IMG/VR virus record: IMGVR_UViG_3300021431_000003
Span: 1 to 64,000 of that record
Length of the DNA stretch: 64,000 bases
DNA from: a virus
Lineage: Duplodnaviria > Caudoviricetes
Direction: 5' to 3' (one strand)
The position numbers and the translations under genes are program-made. Below are positions 9,052-56,884 of this stretch, piece after piece (the first letter of the stretch is position 1; each line of letters starts with the position of its first letter). The notes below the pieces were generated by a model, which was given only the letters and a program-made list of their open reading frames with translations, was not told where the DNA came from and searched no databases.

Positions 9052-9255
9052 AATAAAACCCTCCTTGGGTTGATGCAGCTTTATGCCGCTGGTGCTCTTG
9101 ATATTATCTCCACACCAAATATGTTGATTTTGGTTTCTCAGGAGCATAGCAAAACAGCAACCTGAGGAGTAGAGATTTGATTCTTATTATCTCTTACTCA
9201 CTTATATTATATACATATCAAATAGTAAACTTTTACAATCTCATAACATATAAAT

Positions 9256-9346
9256 AATCGTAGTGAAAAATATCATACATATTAAAACCTTCTATTCAAG
9301 TATTATCCACACATGCTGGTCATGTGTGGATAAATACTGTCCTTTG
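9256..9346 (+). ncRNA. Candidate small RNA (late promoter, anti-RBS segment, hairpin)
   Basis: AACA-tataaa-TAAT at 9245; no ORF; catacatattaaaaccttct is the complement of an RBS+ATG; 12-bp hairpin tatccacacatg/catgtgtggata. Confidence 0.45.
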
Positions 9347-10876: not shown

Positions 10877-12172
10877 ATGAACAGAAGCTTTACATTTGGT
10901 TGTGGACAGGGTGCAACTAAAGCAATGATTTATTGCATTGAGAATGGCACTCTTGACAGAGATGAATGTTGTGTTGTTAATTCTACTGTTAAGGATATTC
11001 CAGAAGATTATAGAGAGGATTGTATTATCATCTCTGAAGACCCAGATGCAGGATGTGGTAAGGTACGTTCTGCTGCTAAGAAGCTTATGCTTGCTTATCT
11101 CAGAAATAATCCTAATGTTATTACTGCACGTATTCCTGATGATGTACAGTATGTAAATATCATTACTACTACAGAAGGTGCATCTGGTTCTGGTGCATCT
11201 GTAGTACTTGCAAAGTATATCGAGTCTCAGCTTGATCTGCCAGTAATCATTACATTGATTTGTGGCTTTGAGTCTGATACTAGAGGTTTGCAGAATACTA
11301 TTGAGTATTTCAAAGACCTTGAGGGTGGTAACTTTGTTGTCAGAACTGTATCTAACAAGAGATTTCTTGAAAAGACTAATAATACTTTTGTTGCAGAAAA
11401 GATGGCAAATGCAGATATCTCTACAGCTTTCAAGGTTGTAAATGCATTTGACATTGTAGATTCTGAGCAGAATATTGATGATACTGACCATTACAAGCTG
11501 ATTACTAATCCTGGTATGATGTTTGTTACCGAAGTTACATTTGATAAGAAGCTTAAGAATCCTAATCAATTCGACCAGCTTGTATCTGATGCAATTGATT
11601 ACTCTTCTTCTCTTGACTTCGAACCATCTGCTACAAAGATTGGTGTGTTTATGAATATCTCTGATGATAACCTTAGTGTTATCGACACTAGCTTCTCTGC
11701 TATCAAGAAGAAGCTTTGTGGTAATAATACCATCGAGGAGTTTTTTGTTCATAGACAGTATAAGGTTGATGAGCCAGAGTTTGTAAGAATTATTGCATCT
11801 GGTATGAATCTTCCTAAGGAAGAGCTTCAGGATATGTATGCTAAGTATCAGAAGAATCTTACTGTAAATAACAACGATGATGATTTCTTCAGTGCTATCT
11901 CTGGTATGGAGACCGTATCTCAGAATACATCTACTGGAAGAAAGAAGAATGATAATGACGACTTCTTCTCTCAGTTTGATGCAGAAGAGACTACAGAAGA
12001 AGATGAACTTGTTATCAGACGCAGTAAGAGAAGAAGACCTACTGGTAATTCTGGCACACCTGATACAAAGGTCGATTCTAATGGTGGTTACGAAAAGAAG
12101 CGTGGTTTTACTGCAAAGAAAACCAATTCTAACGAAACTCCATACTCTGAGGATGTAATTAATAAGTTTTAA
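10877..12172 (+). CDS. Tubulin/FtsZ-family GTPase (PhuZ/TubZ-like)
   Basis: FGCGQG (T1), GCGK (T3), TTEGASGSG (T4 signature variant), NIDDTD (T7), acidic C-tail with DDFF repeats. Confidence 0.85.
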   Translation: MNRSFTFGCGQGATKAMIYCIENGTLDRDECCVVNSTVKDIPEDYREDCIIISEDPDAGCGKVRSAAKKLMLAYLRNNPNVITARIPDDVQYVNIITTTEGASGSGASVVLAKYIESQLDLPVIITLICGFESDTRGLQNTIEYFKDLEGGNFVVRTVSNKRFLEKTNNTFVAEKMANADISTAFKVVNAFDIVDSEQNIDDTDHYKLITNPGMMFVTEVTFDKKLKNPNQFDQLVSDAIDYSSSLDFEPSATKIGVFMNISDDNLSVIDTSFSAIKKKLCGNNTIEEFFVHRQYKVDEPEFVRIIASGMNLPKEELQDMYAKYQKNLTVNNNDDDFFSAISGMETVSQNTSTGRKKNDNDDFFSQFDAEETTEEDELVIRRSKRRRPTGNSGTPDTKVDSNGGYEKKRGFTAKKTNSNETPYSEDVINKF

Positions 12173-12181
12173 CATATAATT

Positions 12182-12256
12182 AATGATACTAAGATTTCAC
12201 ACTTCACATTTAATAAAATACCAGAGTGGCACACACCCACTCTGGTATACTTTTGC
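12182..12256 (+). ncRNA. Candidate trans-acting antisense sRNA
   Basis: AACA-tataat-TAAT promoter at 12171, about 35-nt single-stranded part, terminator ataccagagtgg/ccactctggtat; 12191-12211 is complementary to the leader at 53345-53364. Confidence 0.55.
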
Positions 12257-12324
12257 TTTTAATACCATCAACAACTATTTTATAAATAATTGTACCTTAT
12301 TGGGTACGTATAGGAGGTTTTGTT

Positions 12325-13605
12325 ATGAGTAAAGCAGTAGAAACAGCTGCAGAAGTTAATCTTCTTTTGAATGAGGTTAACGATGTATTAGCTAAGACGA
12401 AAGACTATTCAATGATTAATGAAGCTGAATTTGACGTTCAGTATCCGACAGGTTTCTTATCATTTGATTATAAAGCATGTGGTAAGATTATCAATGTAAC
12501 TTATCCAGATGGTTCTAAGACAAGCTATGATTCTATCGGAATTGTAGATGGAGCCATGTATATGATTATCGGACGTTCTGGTTGTGGTAAATCAACTTAT
12601 GGCGTTCAGATATCTTCAAACATTATTCGTAATTTCATTAATGGAATTATGTTTGTCGATATTACTGAAGCTACTGGTATGATGAAAGACAGACTTCAAG
12701 ACCTAACTGGTTTTAGCGATGAAGAGTTCTCTAAGAAAGTTAAGATGAGAAACGCTGGTATTACAATTGAAAATGTGTACAAGCGTATTAAAGTCATTCA
12801 TGATGTTAAAATCAGTAATCCAGATAAGTATAAATACGATACTGGTCTGGTTGATTGTTTTGGTAAGAAGATTTATAAATTCCAACCAACTGTATATCTC
12901 GTAGACTCTATTCCTTATCTTACAACAGAGAAGATTGCTGAAGAAGAAGAGATGTCTGGTCAGATGTCTGTTACAGCAAATGCAAAAGCTCTTGCACAGT
13001 TCTATAGAAGGACTACTCAGGTTTGCAAAGAAGCTAATATTATCTTTATCGCTATCAATCATATCAATGAAAAGGTAGAGACTGGAATTGTTCATACAAA
13101 GTCTAAGACTCAGTTCCTTAAACAGAATGAAACTCTTCCTGGTGGTAATGCACCTATCTATTCTTCTACAATCTTTAGGATGGATGATGGTTCAAAGCTT
13201 ACTTCAGATAAGGACTTTGGTATTAATGGTTGTTATGTAACCATTTCTAATGTCAAGTCTCGTTCTGGTATTTCTGGTACTGAATCTGCAGTAGACTTGA
13301 TATTTAACTATGTTACTGGATTTGATCCAGACCTGTCTCTCTATATGATGCTTAAGAATGCAGGTAGAGTAAATGGTGCAGGTGCTTATCTGTATTTCGG
13401 TGATAGAAGTGATTGTAAGTTCTCTCAGAGAGGATTTAAATCTAAACTCTATGAAGACCCCGAATTTCTTAATATCTTCGTAGAAGAAGTGGTGACATAT
13501 CTTAAGACAGAACTTGCTGAATATGCAAGACTTAAGTCAATGCCTATGTCTAAGGCGACAAATATGATTATCGATAAGATTAGAGTAATGAACAATGTAA
13601 ACTGA
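12325..13605 (+). CDS. RecA/UvsX-like recombinase ATPase
   Basis: YPTGFLSFD, Walker A GRSGCGKST, Walker B YLVDSI, IFIAINHI, PGG.A. Confidence 0.8.
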   Translation: MSKAVETAAEVNLLLNEVNDVLAKTKDYSMINEAEFDVQYPTGFLSFDYKACGKIINVTYPDGSKTSYDSIGIVDGAMYMIIGRSGCGKSTYGVQISSNIIRNFINGIMFVDITEATGMMKDRLQDLTGFSDEEFSKKVKMRNAGITIENVYKRIKVIHDVKISNPDKYKYDTGLVDCFGKKIYKFQPTVYLVDSIPYLTTEKIAEEEEMSGQMSVTANAKALAQFYRRTTQVCKEANIIFIAINHINEKVETGIVHTKSKTQFLKQNETLPGGNAPIYSSTIFRMDDGSKLTSDKDFGINGCYVTISNVKSRSGISGTESAVDLIFNYVTGFDPDLSLYMMLKNAGRVNGAGAYLYFGDRSDCKFSQRGFKSKLYEDPEFLNIFVEEVVTYLKTELAEYARLKSMPMSKATNMIIDKIRVMNNVN

Positions 13606-47672: not shown

Positions 47673-49313
47673 TTAAGTTGTAGGAGCTGGTTGAGGATTG
47701 CCAGGATTTTTCATCTGGGTTGCTCCAGCTGCCATATTTCTATCCATCTTTCTAGAAACTTTATTAGCAGATTCTTTTTCTTGACCAGGATTTCCAAGAT
47801 ACCATTGAACGTGATGTTGAATAATAGAGTAGAAATCTTTATTAGTAAGCTGAAATGCATTAAACATTGTTCTTACAATAGACGACGAGATTTGTAAATC
47901 TGCGTTTACTCTACCTTGTCTATTGTGAATATCAGCATCTAATAACTGGTCTGCTTTATTTTGAATATTAGAATCAGTTTTATCTATATTTTTAATATTA
48001 GAAGCTTGTTGAGTATTAGCTGTCATATTAGATGCTGCTGTATTAGCATCACTTACTTTTTGAGTATTATCTGCGCCAGCAGCTCCAGACTTCATTTTTG
48101 TAGCAGCTTGCTGTTGAGCAGAATTTGTATTATTAGAAGAATTATCACTAAAATTAGGATTTTCTAATAAGAAAGATGTTGATTCTGTTTTAACACCATC
48201 TGCTCCGATAGCAGATTTAACAGCATTAACATCAACGTCTGCTCCATTTGTACCACCAGATAGGTTATAAGTCTTACCACCTACATTTACTGTAGCATTA
48301 CCAGATGCATCATATTTTTTACCATTAATAGCGCTTTTAATCTGGTCATCAGTAATACTTGTACCAGTATCTTTATTTTTATCATCTTTTGGACCTTGCT
48401 GTGCTACAGCTTTTTTAATTTTATCTTGCTGTGCTTTAACATAATCATCCATTTTCTTTTCAGCTTCGTCCATTTTCTTAGTTATTGTATTCATAAGCTT
48501 TTCAAGTTTATTCATATAAGAAACACCGCCATATGTGGCATTAATAATAACTTGAAAATTCTTATCTACTTCATCACCAGACCATGTTACTGTATCTTCA
48601 GAACCATCAAAATATGCTCTAAAAGTACCATCAATATCTGGATTATTATCATTACCATTTTTTGTGGTAAATCCATCAGCAGATTTATTAGACCAGTATC
48701 CTTGTTTAATAAATTCATTAAAGGCTTGAACTTTAATTTCATCATTAATATCAAGTTTCTTTGGAATAGGAGCGTCAGTAATGCTTTGAGCTGAATCGAA
48801 TACATTTAAATTTAAAAAAGAACCATCATTATTTTCATTATTTCCTACTACATTTTGATTGAAATACTTATCCATATTTGAACCGATTACAGACTGTTCT
48901 GTATTATCAGCAGCATCGATAATTCTAGGAAGACCTTTAAAATGGTCTTTTACATCACTAACATCACCACCATTATATTTACAATTCATGATGATATTAG
49001 CGTACTGTTCCATAAATTTTTTCTGTTCACCAAATAAAGCATTCATGGAAGCACCAAGTTTATCAAAAATCTTTTTAAAGAAATTTTTAATTTTAGTAAA
49101 GAATGCTTTAATCTTATCAGTAAATGCAGATTCATGAATAATATACATCTCATTGATAGCACGTTTATTACCACTAGCCTTAATAAGAGACTCGTTAACA
49201 AAGTTTTCCATCTCTCTATTCTGTTCCATCAATGTAGCGAAGAACTGAGCATCTCTATATACTCTATCTAACTCGCTCTCACAGTCAGTTCTAATCATTG
49301 TAAGTTCACTCAT
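47673..49313 (-). CDS. Internal head protein, paralog 4
   Basis: IHES-AFTDKIKAFFTKIKNFFKKIF amphipathic motif shared with neighbours. Confidence 0.7.
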   Translation of the reverse strand: MSELTMIRTDCESELDRVYRDAQFFATLMEQNREMENFVNESLIKASGNKRAINEMYIIHESAFTDKIKAFFTKIKNFFKKIFDKLGASMNALFGEQKKFMEQYANIIMNCKYNGGDVSDVKDHFKGLPRIIDAADNTEQSVIGSNMDKYFNQNVVGNNENNDGSFLNLNVFDSAQSITDAPIPKKLDINDEIKVQAFNEFIKQGYWSNKSADGFTTKNGNDNNPDIDGTFRAYFDGSEDTVTWSGDEVDKNFQVIINATYGGVSYMNKLEKLMNTITKKMDEAEKKMDDYVKAQQDKIKKAVAQQGPKDDKNKDTGTSITDDQIKSAINGKKYDASGNATVNVGGKTYNLSGGTNGADVDVNAVKSAIGADGVKTESTSFLLENPNFSDNSSNNTNSAQQQAATKMKSGAAGADNTQKVSDANTAASNMTANTQQASNIKNIDKTDSNIQNKADQLLDADIHNRQGRVNADLQISSSIVRTMFNAFQLTNKDFYSIIQHHVQWYLGNPGQEKESANKVSRKMDRNMAAGATQMKNPGNPQPAPTT

Positions 49314-49328
49314 GTTTCTTCACCTCCA

Positions 49329-50603
49329 TTAAAATCCTTCTTTATTAGAACGCTTGAGAATCATCTGAATTGCTTTATTAAGAATCTGCTTATCCTGTTT
49401 AAAGCAATCCTTAGCAGCTTCAAGCTTAGCAGAGAAAGCTTGTGTATGAATCTGGCACATTTGACTTACTCTAGCAGAATATACCTTAAGTAAGCTCTGC
49501 ATCTTATCCGCAGTAGAACTATCATAGATATATCCAGTTTTAGAGTCACCAAAGTTAATAGCACTAAGATTATTAGAAGCATACTCTCTTCCGCCGCTAG
49601 TAGTAATGTCGAGCTTATGAGTATCCTTATTATACTTAATCATCTTGTCGAGATATTTTTCAAGGTCTTCATAATCCTTTACCATGTCATTCTTGTTCTT
49701 CTCAATAGCTTTTACTACATCTTTATACTTATCAAATCTACGATAAGCATCATTTACAAATCCGCTATCAATAGTAATACTAGATGTAGAATCACTATCA
49801 TCTCTGAAAATTTTAAATAATTCTTCTGTAAATTCTCTAGAGTCAAACTTCTGATTTGCTTTACCGATTACAATACCTCTGAATTCTTCATAGAAGTCTT
49901 CATTCTTATCAGAGATATCATTAATTTTATTTGAAAGGTCACTATTAATTTTTTCTGTAGCAGCCTTTCTTCTATCGATTTCAACTTTATCGGCGTTAGT
50001 ATTTGTATCTAAGTCACCAAATCTGTCATTCATATTAGCGCCAAATTTATAATAGTCTCCATCAACTGAACCCTTAAAATTATCAGCAAAACTTAAGTCC
50101 ATTACTCCATTAGTCGTAGCACTACCTTTAAAAGCATCAACTGCTTTTGCTTGAGGAATACCATCATAACTTTCGATATGTGTATACTTATAACCCTGGA
50201 ATTCGAATTCATCTTCAGAACCAAACTTATTTAACAGCTTAGCATTCTTCTTGATATACTTCTCAGAACCTACTAATGCTGCAAGTTTAGCAACGAATTC
50301 TTTGAATACTTTCTTAATCCATTCAATGAATTTCTTGATGATGTCTTTAATCTTATTAAAGAAATCACTAAAGGATTCATTGATAATATTGCTATCTCCG
50401 TAAGAACCCATAACCTTAGTATAGAATTCCTTTTCTGCATTACAATAGAATGCATTCATTTCAAGAATAGCATCATAACCTTCCTGAACAAAGGAATGAC
50501 GTTGTACATCATTATCTACATAACCGATATTATCAATATCGATAGAAGAAGATGTAGTATTGTCATTCTCAAGGAGAATATTGTTTAACGAGAATAAACC
50601 CAT
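49329..50603 (-). CDS. Internal head protein, paralog 3
   Basis: INES-FSDFFNKIKDIIKKFIEWIKK; GYKYTH; FTEELFKIFRD; QAFSA.L.A.KD. Confidence 0.7.
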   Translation of the reverse strand: MGLFSLNNILLENDNTTSSSIDIDNIGYVDNDVQRHSFVQEGYDAILEMNAFYCNAEKEFYTKVMGSYGDSNIINESFSDFFNKIKDIIKKFIEWIKKVFKEFVAKLAALVGSEKYIKKNAKLLNKFGSEDEFEFQGYKYTHIESYDGIPQAKAVDAFKGSATTNGVMDLSFADNFKGSVDGDYYKFGANMNDRFGDLDTNTNADKVEIDRRKAATEKINSDLSNKINDISDKNEDFYEEFRGIVIGKANQKFDSREFTEELFKIFRDDSDSTSSITIDSGFVNDAYRRFDKYKDVVKAIEKNKNDMVKDYEDLEKYLDKMIKYNKDTHKLDITTSGGREYASNNLSAINFGDSKTGYIYDSSTADKMQSLLKVYSARVSQMCQIHTQAFSAKLEAAKDCFKQDKQILNKAIQMILKRSNKEGF

Positions 50604-50702
50604 GTATGTTTCCTCCTTTACATAAAGTAAGAAAAGCCAGAATACCAGTTAAGGTATTCTGGCTCTGATTATATCGTAATATATCAGACCAACTGATATT
50701 TA

Positions 50703-51968
50703 TTAAACAAGCTTTACAGAGGAGATGAAGTCGCCACCGAAAGCAGTAGAAGTTGTGTTACCGTCATTGGAATAATCAGCAGACTCAGTCATCTTCTTAC
50801 TCAGACCGATAACCTTAACTGCGATTTCCTTAGCCTGAGTACACTGGTCCTTAGTAGCCTGAAGAGCTGCAGAGAACGCCTGTGTCTGAACTTCTTTAAT
50901 GAAACCCCAAATAGACTGAACAAGAGATGCTGCAGAGACAATCTTTTCGTTGTTAAGCTTAGTAGTATCATTTGTATTACTATCATTGTTTACCTTAACA
51001 AGAGAATCTTCAGCTTTATCGATAGCATTAACCATCTCGTCAATGGATTTAACCATAGCATTTTCAGTCTTTTCGAGATTAGTCTTAATTTTATCATAAT
51101 CTTTAATGCATGTCATAAGACCATTAATGCTATTACCGTAAGCTCCAGTAACATCATTCTTCTTCATGTCCTGTTTAGAATCTTGACCATCTCTGAAAAC
51201 CTTGAAAAGCTCTTCGGTAAATTCCTTAGAATCAAGACCCTTATCTACATCGGTAGAAAATTCAGCTGCACCCATACTATTAATAGTACCACCGTTAATA
51301 GCTGTGATGGTTGCTTGACGAATACCATCTTTAATACCATCGAGTTTATCACGTACAGCAGCAATTTCATTAGTCTCTGCACCAGTAGTTCCGCCATTAC
51401 CGTCATTTTTTACAGCTACAGTTTTTAATGCATTTGCTAGGTCAGTATTATTTGCATTTAAAATATCGACAATCTTACCAGTACCTTTAAATTTTGTTTT
51501 AAATGTAGCAGTAGCATCACTAGTTGAAAGATTTGGGAGATGAGTATACTTATAACCCTTGAATTCCCAATCATTACTTACAAGACCCCAGTTCTTAATA
51601 ACTTCCTTTTCATACTTCTTAGCGAAGTCTTTGTTATTACCGAACCAAGAAGACATCTTAGCGATGAATGTATGGAAAATCTTATGAATCTTTTCGATAA
51701 TCTTCTTGAAGAATGCCTTAATCTTTTCAAAGATACCCTTGATATTTACAGATTCATAAAGAACATCTGTATTACCGTACTGCTCCATAGAAGCAAGTTC
51801 CTGAAGAGCGATAGCCTTCATGAAAGCATTCTGGTTAGCTGCAGACTCAGCTGCAGCAATGATACCAAGCTCATGATAATTGAAATGCTCTCCAGTGAAA
51901 GGTTCTACAGAGGTATAATCAGAACTAGAATAGCCGTTATTGAAAACAGCATTAGTATAGATACCCAT
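50703..51968 (-). CDS. Internal head protein, paralog 2
   Basis: Start MGIYTN at 51968 with aaggagg RBS; LYES-V..IFEKIKAFFKKI; GYKYTH; FTEELFKVFRD. Confidence 0.7.
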   Translation of the reverse strand: MGIYTNAVFNNGYSSSDYTSVEPFTGEHFNYHELGIIAAAESAANQNAFMKAIALQELASMEQYGNTDVLYESVNIKGIFEKIKAFFKKIIEKIHKIFHTFIAKMSSWFGNNKDFAKKYEKEVIKNWGLVSNDWEFKGYKYTHLPNLSTSDATATFKTKFKGTGKIVDILNANNTDLANALKTVAVKNDGNGGTTGAETNEIAAVRDKLDGIKDGIRQATITAINGGTINSMGAAEFSTDVDKGLDSKEFTEELFKVFRDGQDSKQDMKKNDVTGAYGNSINGLMTCIKDYDKIKTNLEKTENAMVKSIDEMVNAIDKAEDSLVKVNNDSNTNDTTKLNNEKIVSAASLVQSIWGFIKEVQTQAFSAALQATKDQCTQAKEIAVKVIGLSKKMTESADYSNDGNTTSTAFGGDFISSVKLV

Positions 51969-51972
51969 ATTC

Positions 51973-53295
51973 TTAGTCCTCCTTTCTTGTACCGATAGAT
52001 TCCATATTAATATAGAACTGTTCAGCAGCAGCCTCACCGAGAGCCTGATAATACTCAACAGATTCCTTATGAGTAGTAGAAGACCAAGCTGCTGCAGCAG
52101 TCCACATCTTACGTGCCTGAGCCATAGCAAACTTAACCTGAGACATATACTCAGAAGTTACCTTTGTAATAACTTCCTGTTCGTTAGAAGCAACCTTCTG
52201 GCAAGCCTGGATGCACTGCTGTAAATCAGATGCTTTAAGCTTAGATGCATTTTGACCATTGCCAGTTTCCTTATCAAAGTCAGCGGCAACACTACCTCCA
52301 ATTTTAGAATCCTTGTCTACGCTGCTTGTATTATTTCTAAATTCCCATTTACCATTATTAGAACCCTTGAATGCAGCTTTATCAGATTCGGAATTCTTTT
52401 GGATAAATGTTGCAAGATTATCGCTAGTCTTATTTAAATCATCAATAATTTTATTAATGATTTTATCAAGATTATCATTAGTCTTTCTGACTTCAGATTC
52501 CCACTTTTCATCCATTAAAACACCTTTTACCCACTTAGATGTGAATGTAGAAGAAGAAATCTTATCATCTTCGCCATCAAAAGTAGCCTCATCTTCATAT
52601 AAAAATTCTGTAACTTTTTCAGAAAATTCTTTATAATCAGATACAGTTACATTTGTATAAGCTTTAAGCAGAGCAAGTTTGAGCTCTTCTGTATCAGCAT
52701 CTTTAATTTTTGATGTAGTCCAAGTATTATTAGCACCAGTACCGCCGATATGAGGAGCATATGCTGCATCAGCAGTAGTTTTCCTTGGATCAATTTGATA
52801 TGCATCATTAATTGCGAATTTAAATGCACATGTGGTGCCTGTGCCAAAAATTGCAGACTTGATATCATCTTTACCAGCTCTAGGCTTACGAATTCCCTTA
52901 ATCTTCAGGTCCTTCCAGTTAGAGTACTTGATAATCTGCTTCTCGTACTTCTTAACAAGGTCCTTACCGTTCTTGAAAGCACCAGCAAGCTTAGCGAGGA
53001 AAGCATTGAAGATACCCTTAATCTTAGCAAGAAGCTTCTTGAACATTTCAACAATCTTCTTGATAACATCAGTGAAAGCATTCTCGTTTACAATCTGAGT
53101 ACCTTCCTGAAGAGACATAACTTCAGCCATGTCATTATAGATAGCACTTTCGAAGAGAGCCATATCGTTAGCCTGATTATCAGCCATAATATGTGCACAA
53201 CCAAAAGCTGCATCATATGCTTCATTAGCGGGGATTTCAGCGGCATAGTCGTATGCTTCGCCTACAACAAATCTATTGCTTGTATAGATTCCCAT
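51973..53295 (-). CDS. Internal head protein, paralog 1
   Basis: MGIYTS; VNE-NAFTDVIKKIVEMFKK; late promoter at 53364-53377. Confidence 0.7.
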   Translation of the reverse strand: MGIYTSNRFVVGEAYDYAAEIPANEAYDAAFGCAHIMADNQANDMALFESAIYNDMAEVMSLQEGTQIVNENAFTDVIKKIVEMFKKLLAKIKGIFNAFLAKLAGAFKNGKDLVKKYEKQIIKYSNWKDLKIKGIRKPRAGKDDIKSAIFGTGTTCAFKFAINDAYQIDPRKTTADAAYAPHIGGTGANNTWTTSKIKDADTEELKLALLKAYTNVTVSDYKEFSEKVTEFLYEDEATFDGEDDKISSSTFTSKWVKGVLMDEKWESEVRKTNDNLDKIINKIIDDLNKTSDNLATFIQKNSESDKAAFKGSNNGKWEFRNNTSSVDKDSKIGGSVAADFDKETGNGQNASKLKASDLQQCIQACQKVASNEQEVITKVTSEYMSQVKFAMAQARKMWTAAAAWSSTTHKESVEYYQALGEAAAEQFYINMESIGTRKED

Positions 53296-53400
53296 ATTGT
53301 ATAACCTCCTTATTAGATTATTACTTTAGTATATAAATTGACAAAAGATTTCACACACACATTTTTATTTATATGTTTATAAGCAAAAGTTTAAAGTAAA

Positions 53401-56806: not shown

Positions 56807-56884
56807 TGAGTTAACCTCCTTTATACTCAGATTTTATAGATATGTTTCAAAAAATAAAGTGTATCACCAGACTGATGTCTCTAA

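Follow-up and report, generated by a model that had tools for sequence, protein, structure and literature searches.

This analysis indicated that an AR9-like gut jumbo phage carries, immediately behind its tubulin gene, a candidate small RNA (sRNA) gene whose product very probably pairs in trans with the 5' end of an mRNA for four paralogous virion proteins, encoded about 41 kb away. Judged by sequence comparison, the two sites make up a conserved, covarying trans RNA pair, and the RNA would be a regulator of a known kind outside any Rfam family, in line with the fact that Rfam covariance models gave no match to the unit, be it to RoxS/RsaE, to FasX or to any other family.

The window, that is, the whole stretch of DNA analysed (64,000 nucleotides), corresponds to bases 1-64000 of a complete virus record of 223,528 bp with 33% GC. 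According to profile searches, this genome encodes a tubulin, a UvsX-like recombinase and split RNA polymerase (RNAP) beta subunits. A 737-aa gene at genome position 85267, considered as the major capsid gene for the comparison of leaders, was rejected because it encodes an RNAP beta subunit. The nearest cultured phages, LPJP1, AR9 and PBS1, share about 35% RecA identity with it, and a blastn search against phage records returned no match and hence no close cultured relative. Closer relatives are uncultured, and the runs that contain this stretch were mostly from bovine gut samples. We infer a Firmicute host possessing RNase J, and only hints point to Firmicutes, namely the strong AGGAGG sites of the phage and the occurrence of related contigs inside two bins labelled Bacilli and Eubacterium. 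Seven related full phage genomes were assembled for comparison, and six further contigs were fetched at both sites, the leader being present in five of them. Both sites were read on the same contig in 12 genomes; ERZ27227506, whose leader lies outside the locus fetched, was left out of the pairing scores. In the distant RecA relatives (L174-L182), both the tubulin context and the motif were absent.

The candidate sRNA unit starts with a late promoter (12171-12182, + strand) of the type mapped in AR9, where the consensus is AACA-N6-TA and +1 is the final A (PMC5312081), giving a predicted start at 12182. AR9-like late promoters are a bare four-plus-two motif, and in the present genome AAC[A/T]-N6-TA stands at the head of dozens of transcription units with leaders of 20-35 nt. 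The sRNA promoter overlaps the stop codon (12170-12172) of the tubulin/PhuZ-like gene (10877-12172, +; PF00091, E 3e-4, under the gathering cutoff). It is followed by an unstructured seed (12184-12211, +), and then by an intrinsic-terminator-like hairpin with a U-rich tail (12218-12260, +), the 12-bp stem of which (12218-12248) has a folding z of -5; in relatives the sequence of this stem differs and its structure is kept. The predicted RNA is about 78 nt long, with 36 unpaired nt before the hairpin, and no ORF was found within 12182-12260. The sequence-only reading had indeed described a promoter, a seed and a terminator without any ORF from 12171 onward, and this organisation is present. The tubulin mRNA would also end at this terminator. 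By contrast, the unit is not the leader of its downstream neighbour, a UvsX/RecA-like recombinase gene (12325-13605, +; phrog_97, E 1e-35), since that gene has its own late promoter 3' of the hairpin (AACT-N6-TA, 12273-12284, +, with +1 at 12284), similar motifs being found in relatives. Among the 12 genomes in which both sites were read, the sRNA promoter is intact in ten and degenerate in two (G002 and G004), where the RNA may therefore act from the tubulin 3' UTR. Transcription would start from both the sRNA and the target promoters (12182 and 53366), judging by their motifs; among contigs assembled from RNA libraries, one spans the sRNA site at a depth of 2.2, such contigs being unable to show ends, strand or level. 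The unit thus displays the features of a trans-encoded sRNA: a separate locus with its own promoter and terminator and no ORF, an accessible seed with imperfect and specific complementarity to a distant mRNA, and a complementarity that is conserved and covaries, the G001 lineage being devoid of it.

Other elements were observed in the neighbourhood of this unit. Upstream of the tubulin operon, a second series of promoter, single-stranded region and hairpin (9245-9340, +) is followed by a separate operon promoter; its hairpin is conserved with altered stems, and an anti-SD-like seed (CUCCU/CCUUCU) occurs in 11 relatives. This is a candidate second late sRNA, in which case the tubulin operon would be bracketed by two. 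Its stem arms are, in this genome, inverted DnaA-box-like 9-mers (at 9303 and 9325), not conserved as such. Directly before the Shine-Dalgarno (SD) sequence of RecA, a short GTAC hairpin (12293-12308, +), conserved in the clade, is a possible translational operator, and like hairpins precede other genes. In two relatives, two or three Tad2-like genes (PF11195, anti-Thoeris) lie directly upstream of tubulin (L211:221-1785 and L216:685-1786). Beyond the window, at genome positions 102565-102720, a promoter is associated with a 200-nt ORF-free stretch and a 5' hairpin, as it is at the same place in G012 (162165).

The target is the GU-rich segment formed by nt 3-28 of a 71-nt leader (53339-53364, -), about 30 nt upstream of an SD sequence (about 53305-53311). 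A late promoter had been announced at 53364-53377; an AR9-type motif is indeed there (53366-53377, -), with a start that the AR9 consensus places two nt away, at 53366 and not at 53364. The operon that it serves comprises four genes for helical proteins with Glu cleavage-like motifs (47673-53295, -), at 51973-53295, 50703 to about 51970, 49329-50603 and 47673-49313, and their mutual sequence relatedness bears out the earlier claim that they are paralogs. We consider with fair confidence that they encode virion proteins, probably head cargo: one paralog has a weak match to a virion-protein PHROG (phrog_18338, E 6e-4), PF12699 (phiKZ_IP) occurs in 10% of the members of the ESM Atlas cluster, and a model with a pLDDT of 63 gave weak fold matches to jumbo-phage virion proteins. 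No Pfam match was found for the target proteins, nor any significant PDB match for the predicted structure of the first paralog, and the more precise identity of internal head proteins is tentative, with weak support. A promoter further upstream, at 56835, can also read these genes, so that only the internal transcript starting at 53366 carries the target at its 5' end. The copy number of the first paralog varies from one to three among lineages (L185-L188, L209, L213); with two or three copies, the module of promoter and leader precedes the last one only, and is still conserved.

The two loci share a 12-mer (12191-12202 and 53345-53356), followed by TT at the sRNA locus and by A at the target locus, and then by seven matching bases (12205-12211 and 53358-53364); both sequences sit where the sequence-only reading had placed them. 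Apart from these two sites, no copy of the 12-mer was found in the 223.5-kb genome, with one mismatch allowed. The predicted duplex includes, as had been proposed, a 12-bp core (12191-12202), a small loop (2 nt in the seed) and a 7-bp helix (12205-12211), the latter pairing the 5' end of the target. It is longer than proposed, however, since a further 5-bp helix (12184-12188 with 53343-53339) brings it to 24 bp in three helices, with an energy of -27.7 kcal/mol. The match had also been considered hard to explain by chance, a view that holds for another reason than the one given. Within this genome, a 12+7 match is common to about 15 pairs of intergenic loci, mostly duplicated promoters and terminators, and as such is suggestive only and not decisive; it is conservation together with covariation that excludes chance.

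Covariation of the two sites across related phages, which the sequence-only reading had put forward as a check, was indeed found. Pairing between seed and leader is kept in 11 of the 12 genomes, at -17.7 to -30.8 kcal/mol (net cofold energy of -15 to -23), through imperfect duplexes of 19-27 bp. When both strands of the whole genome were considered, the leader was the best trans partner of the seed in all four long-seed genomes (G000, G011, G006 and G012), and the second best in G002/G004. Of the 720 possible assignments among six lineages, own-genome pairing came out best, as it did among 120 each time one lineage was left out; for seven-genome sets the figure was 2 of 5040. Random drift is thus unlikely, since independent drift predicts no preference for the own genome. 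About five separate changes are distributed over different branches of the protein tree. In G002/G004, a leader shorter by 3 nt is met by a seed that is also shorter. In SRR21780870, seed and leader are each longer by 2 nt. In STEW19/GLEN20, the third leader base has become U and the distal half is remodelled, and the seed follows at both places. One U is lost in SRR18716989, where one G-U pair has become G-C, and the distal helix takes two matching forms across lineages. Pairing of the transcribed strands is also stronger than that of their complements in nine of the 11 genomes, the gain being 2.2-6.5 kcal/mol, and slightly weaker in two; this strand and wobble bias is weaker evidence, as the A/C-rich composition of the seed is partly expected to give wobbles. 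Such conserved, covarying complementarity supports the interpretation of the candidate unit as a trans-acting RNA. A chance likeness between (AC)n tracts of low complexity that go back to a common ancestor, compatible with the frequency of 12+7 matches between intergenic segments of one genome, is by contrast largely refuted and in our view barely credible: it does not account for the own-genome preference, nor for a seed core that is kept across lineages while the sequence of the adjoining terminator stem turns over completely.

The slot behind the tubulin gene was occupied by other seeds in some lineages. In G001 (L009, about 2800-2900), promoter and terminator are kept around a different, pyrimidine-rich seed that resembles an anti-SD and reaches -4.2 kcal/mol with the leader; L071/L072 likewise keep the leader sequence with a different seed. 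As the leader sequence is retained in G001 without a matching seed, something else must also constrain it; a search within G001 revealed no other partner for this leader, the best non-self matches, at about -21, being with unrelated sequence. In the outgroup G008 (L172, about 2310-2410), the slot contains a promoter-seed-hairpin unit with an anti-RBS-like seed, and the leader is unrelated. The G001 and G008 seeds match several RBS regions best, with energies of about -21 kcal/mol and no one region standing out. This pattern suggests that the post-tubulin slot may be a cassette with swappable seeds.

A third CA tract, with the polarity of the seed, was located outside the window, in the leader of the tail-sheath gene (genome 112768-112780; L226:8769-8781), the sheath being identified by ESM Atlas clusters (PF20961/PF17482) and by an adjacent tube gene. 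It lies after a conserved 5' hairpin, is complementary to the 5' end of the head operon, and is doubled in G006 and G012. Intergenic (AC)n tracts recurred at the seed, head-leader and sheath-leader loci only. The two-site picture drawn earlier is thus accurate for both sites and has to be completed with this third copy and with a lineage that lacks the seed. The sheath-leader tract keeps two alternative explanations alive. The GU-rich 5' end of the head mRNA may act on the CA-rich element of the sheath leader as GcvB R1 does on its targets, and the sRNA, as a mimic comparable to AgvB, would then titrate this 5' end in a three-RNA circuit balancing head cargo against tail sheath. We hold this to be rather unlikely, albeit in line with several observations: the seven full clade genomes all have a CA tract with the polarity of the seed 10-35 nt before the sheath SD, the sRNA is computed to bind the head leader more strongly than the sheath leader does in 6/6 seed-keeping genomes, G001 keeps both the head leader and the sheath tract without the seed, and AgvB and SroC offer precedents (PMC4104026, PMC4474525). 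In five of seven genomes, moreover, none of the 166-191 gene-upstream regions pairs better with the head 5' end than the sheath leader, although these genomes are related and the rank counts are not independent. Pairing of the sheath leader with the head leader, however, shows neither own-genome preference (54 and 82 of 120) nor strand bias, and its net energy is just -10 to -14 kcal/mol. Covariation between these two leaders was tested and was absent. Slightly less likely again is the full scheme, in which this circuit would determine how much head cargo is made relative to tail sheath, the sRNA would act as a sponge, prevailing over the sheath leader, and also cap head mRNA, and the slot would be a seed-swapping cassette.

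The other explanation dispenses with RNA-RNA pairing and takes the motif for a protein-binding site near late promoters, either in double-stranded DNA in any orientation or in CA-rich RNA. The fact that each genome has three copies, every one of them in the leader of a late promoter, together with the rarity of other intergenic (AC)n tracts and the retention of the leader where the seed is lost, would agree with it. We nevertheless judge it improbable, because the half-motifs are not equally spaced in the several copies of a single genome (5, 6 and 8 nt apart in G002), the flanks covary as complements lineage by lineage, and no RegA-family gene was found in the phage by a search run without a positive control. 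The orientation-independent DNA site that the sequence-only reading had mentioned as its alternative accordingly fits poorly.

From a mechanistic point of view, whether the sRNA shields the 5' end of the head mRNA, as RoxS and FasX do for their targets, appears to us evenly balanced. The trans duplex would replace a 5' hairpin that outgroup phages form in cis, would block host decay dependent on the 5' end (of the RppH or RNase J type), and would result in more head-operon mRNA late in infection, the effect being presumably a stabilising one. Protection of the 5' end is favoured here because the duplex starts at the very end of the leader, relief of the SD is inconsistent, outgroups carry cis hairpins and bulges are lineage-specific. 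With predicted start sites, the first paired leader nucleotide is indeed nt 1-3 in 11/11 genomes with a seed. Among outgroups, six leaders open with a cis hairpin, located at nt 3-4 (z -1.5 to -6.4). Such a hairpin also occurs, at nt 6 (z -2.3 to -2.9), in the clade whose seed is weak or lost, and 6/9 strong-seed leaders are without it; the gain of the cis hairpin concerns one clade and is therefore one event only, which limits the support for protection. Against protection, G012, STEW19 and GLEN20 combine a strong seed with some cis structure, and most late leaders are short and unprotected, so that 5' protection is not generally needed.

A duplex of at least 20 bp could equally recruit RNase III, and the same pairing may act negatively, by attracting this or another nuclease or by remodelling the leader, thereby capping head cargo. 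Duplexes of 19-27 bp approach the length of RNase III substrates. Lambda OOP acts in this manner on cII (PMC12197685). We find a negative effect unlikely, however, since the pairing site is far from the SD, no RNase III gene was found in the phage genome, and each lineage has its own bulge or loop although one or two changes would make the duplex perfect, suggesting that a fully paired RNase III substrate is avoided. In the genomes compared, the duplex ends at about nt 24-32 and the SD starts at about nt 44-75, so that the RBS would not be occluded, as it is by RBS-occluding antisense RNAs. Conversely, the 5' part of the leader may sequester the SD, and the sRNA may free it. In G000 and SRR160, the SD and spacer are paired to the target in the fold of minimum energy, blocking nt 1-28 lowers the cost of opening the RBS by 1.0-5.3 kcal/mol in seven genomes, and RoxS shows both effects. 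This activation is nonetheless improbable, as no relief was seen in SRR217, STEW19, GLEN20 and G001, relief was below 1 kcal/mol in G012, and the G000 leader folds no better than shuffles (z -0.6). A conserved sequestration of the SD was thus rejected, relief being inconsistent across genomes.

If these predictions are true, AR9-like phages tune the amounts of virion proteins post-transcriptionally by RNA-RNA pairing, and a stabilising 5' hairpin formed in cis can, in the course of evolution, give way to a trans duplex. Compensatory changes that arose naturally pin down the target and constitute ready-made allele swaps. The roles of small RNAs of lytic phages have been called unclear, few having a known target, and one 75-nt sRNA predicted in phiKZ was not detectable (PMC8244752). 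The literature searched, the coverage of which is incomplete, yielded no example of a trans-acting RNA directed at structural genes of the jumbo phage that encodes it. AR9-type late promoters are known to drive non-coding antisense transcripts as well (PMC5312081), and lambda OOP and the intergenic or antisense RNAs of phiR1-37 and AR9 are likewise phage RNAs acting on phage mRNA (PMC12197685, PMC5312081). These are, however, cis-antisense RNAs, lysogeny regulators or RNAs with no known target, and none forms a covarying trans pair with the leader of a virion gene. RoxS-yflS in Bacillus subtilis and FasX-ska in Streptococcus pyogenes are precedents for sRNAs that protect a 5' end (PMC5419742). 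By contrast with them, the present candidate is phage-encoded, depends on a phage-RNAP promoter and is aimed at the phage's own structural operon, through a CA/GU duplex of 19-27 bp where theirs involves a short C/G seed, with no sequence relation. AgvB, from an EHEC prophage, and SroC, a sponge of GcvB, differ in being Hfq-dependent and in having a host sRNA as target (PMC4104026, PMC4474525), whereas the GU-rich partner is here the 5' end of a phage mRNA, whose would-be natural target, the sheath leader, does not covary. AgvB is nevertheless similar in being a short RNA of phage origin that has a CA-rich seed at its 5' end and a terminator, mimics a C/A-rich mRNA element (PMC4104026) and pairs with a GU-rich RNA, as the candidate described here is predicted to do.
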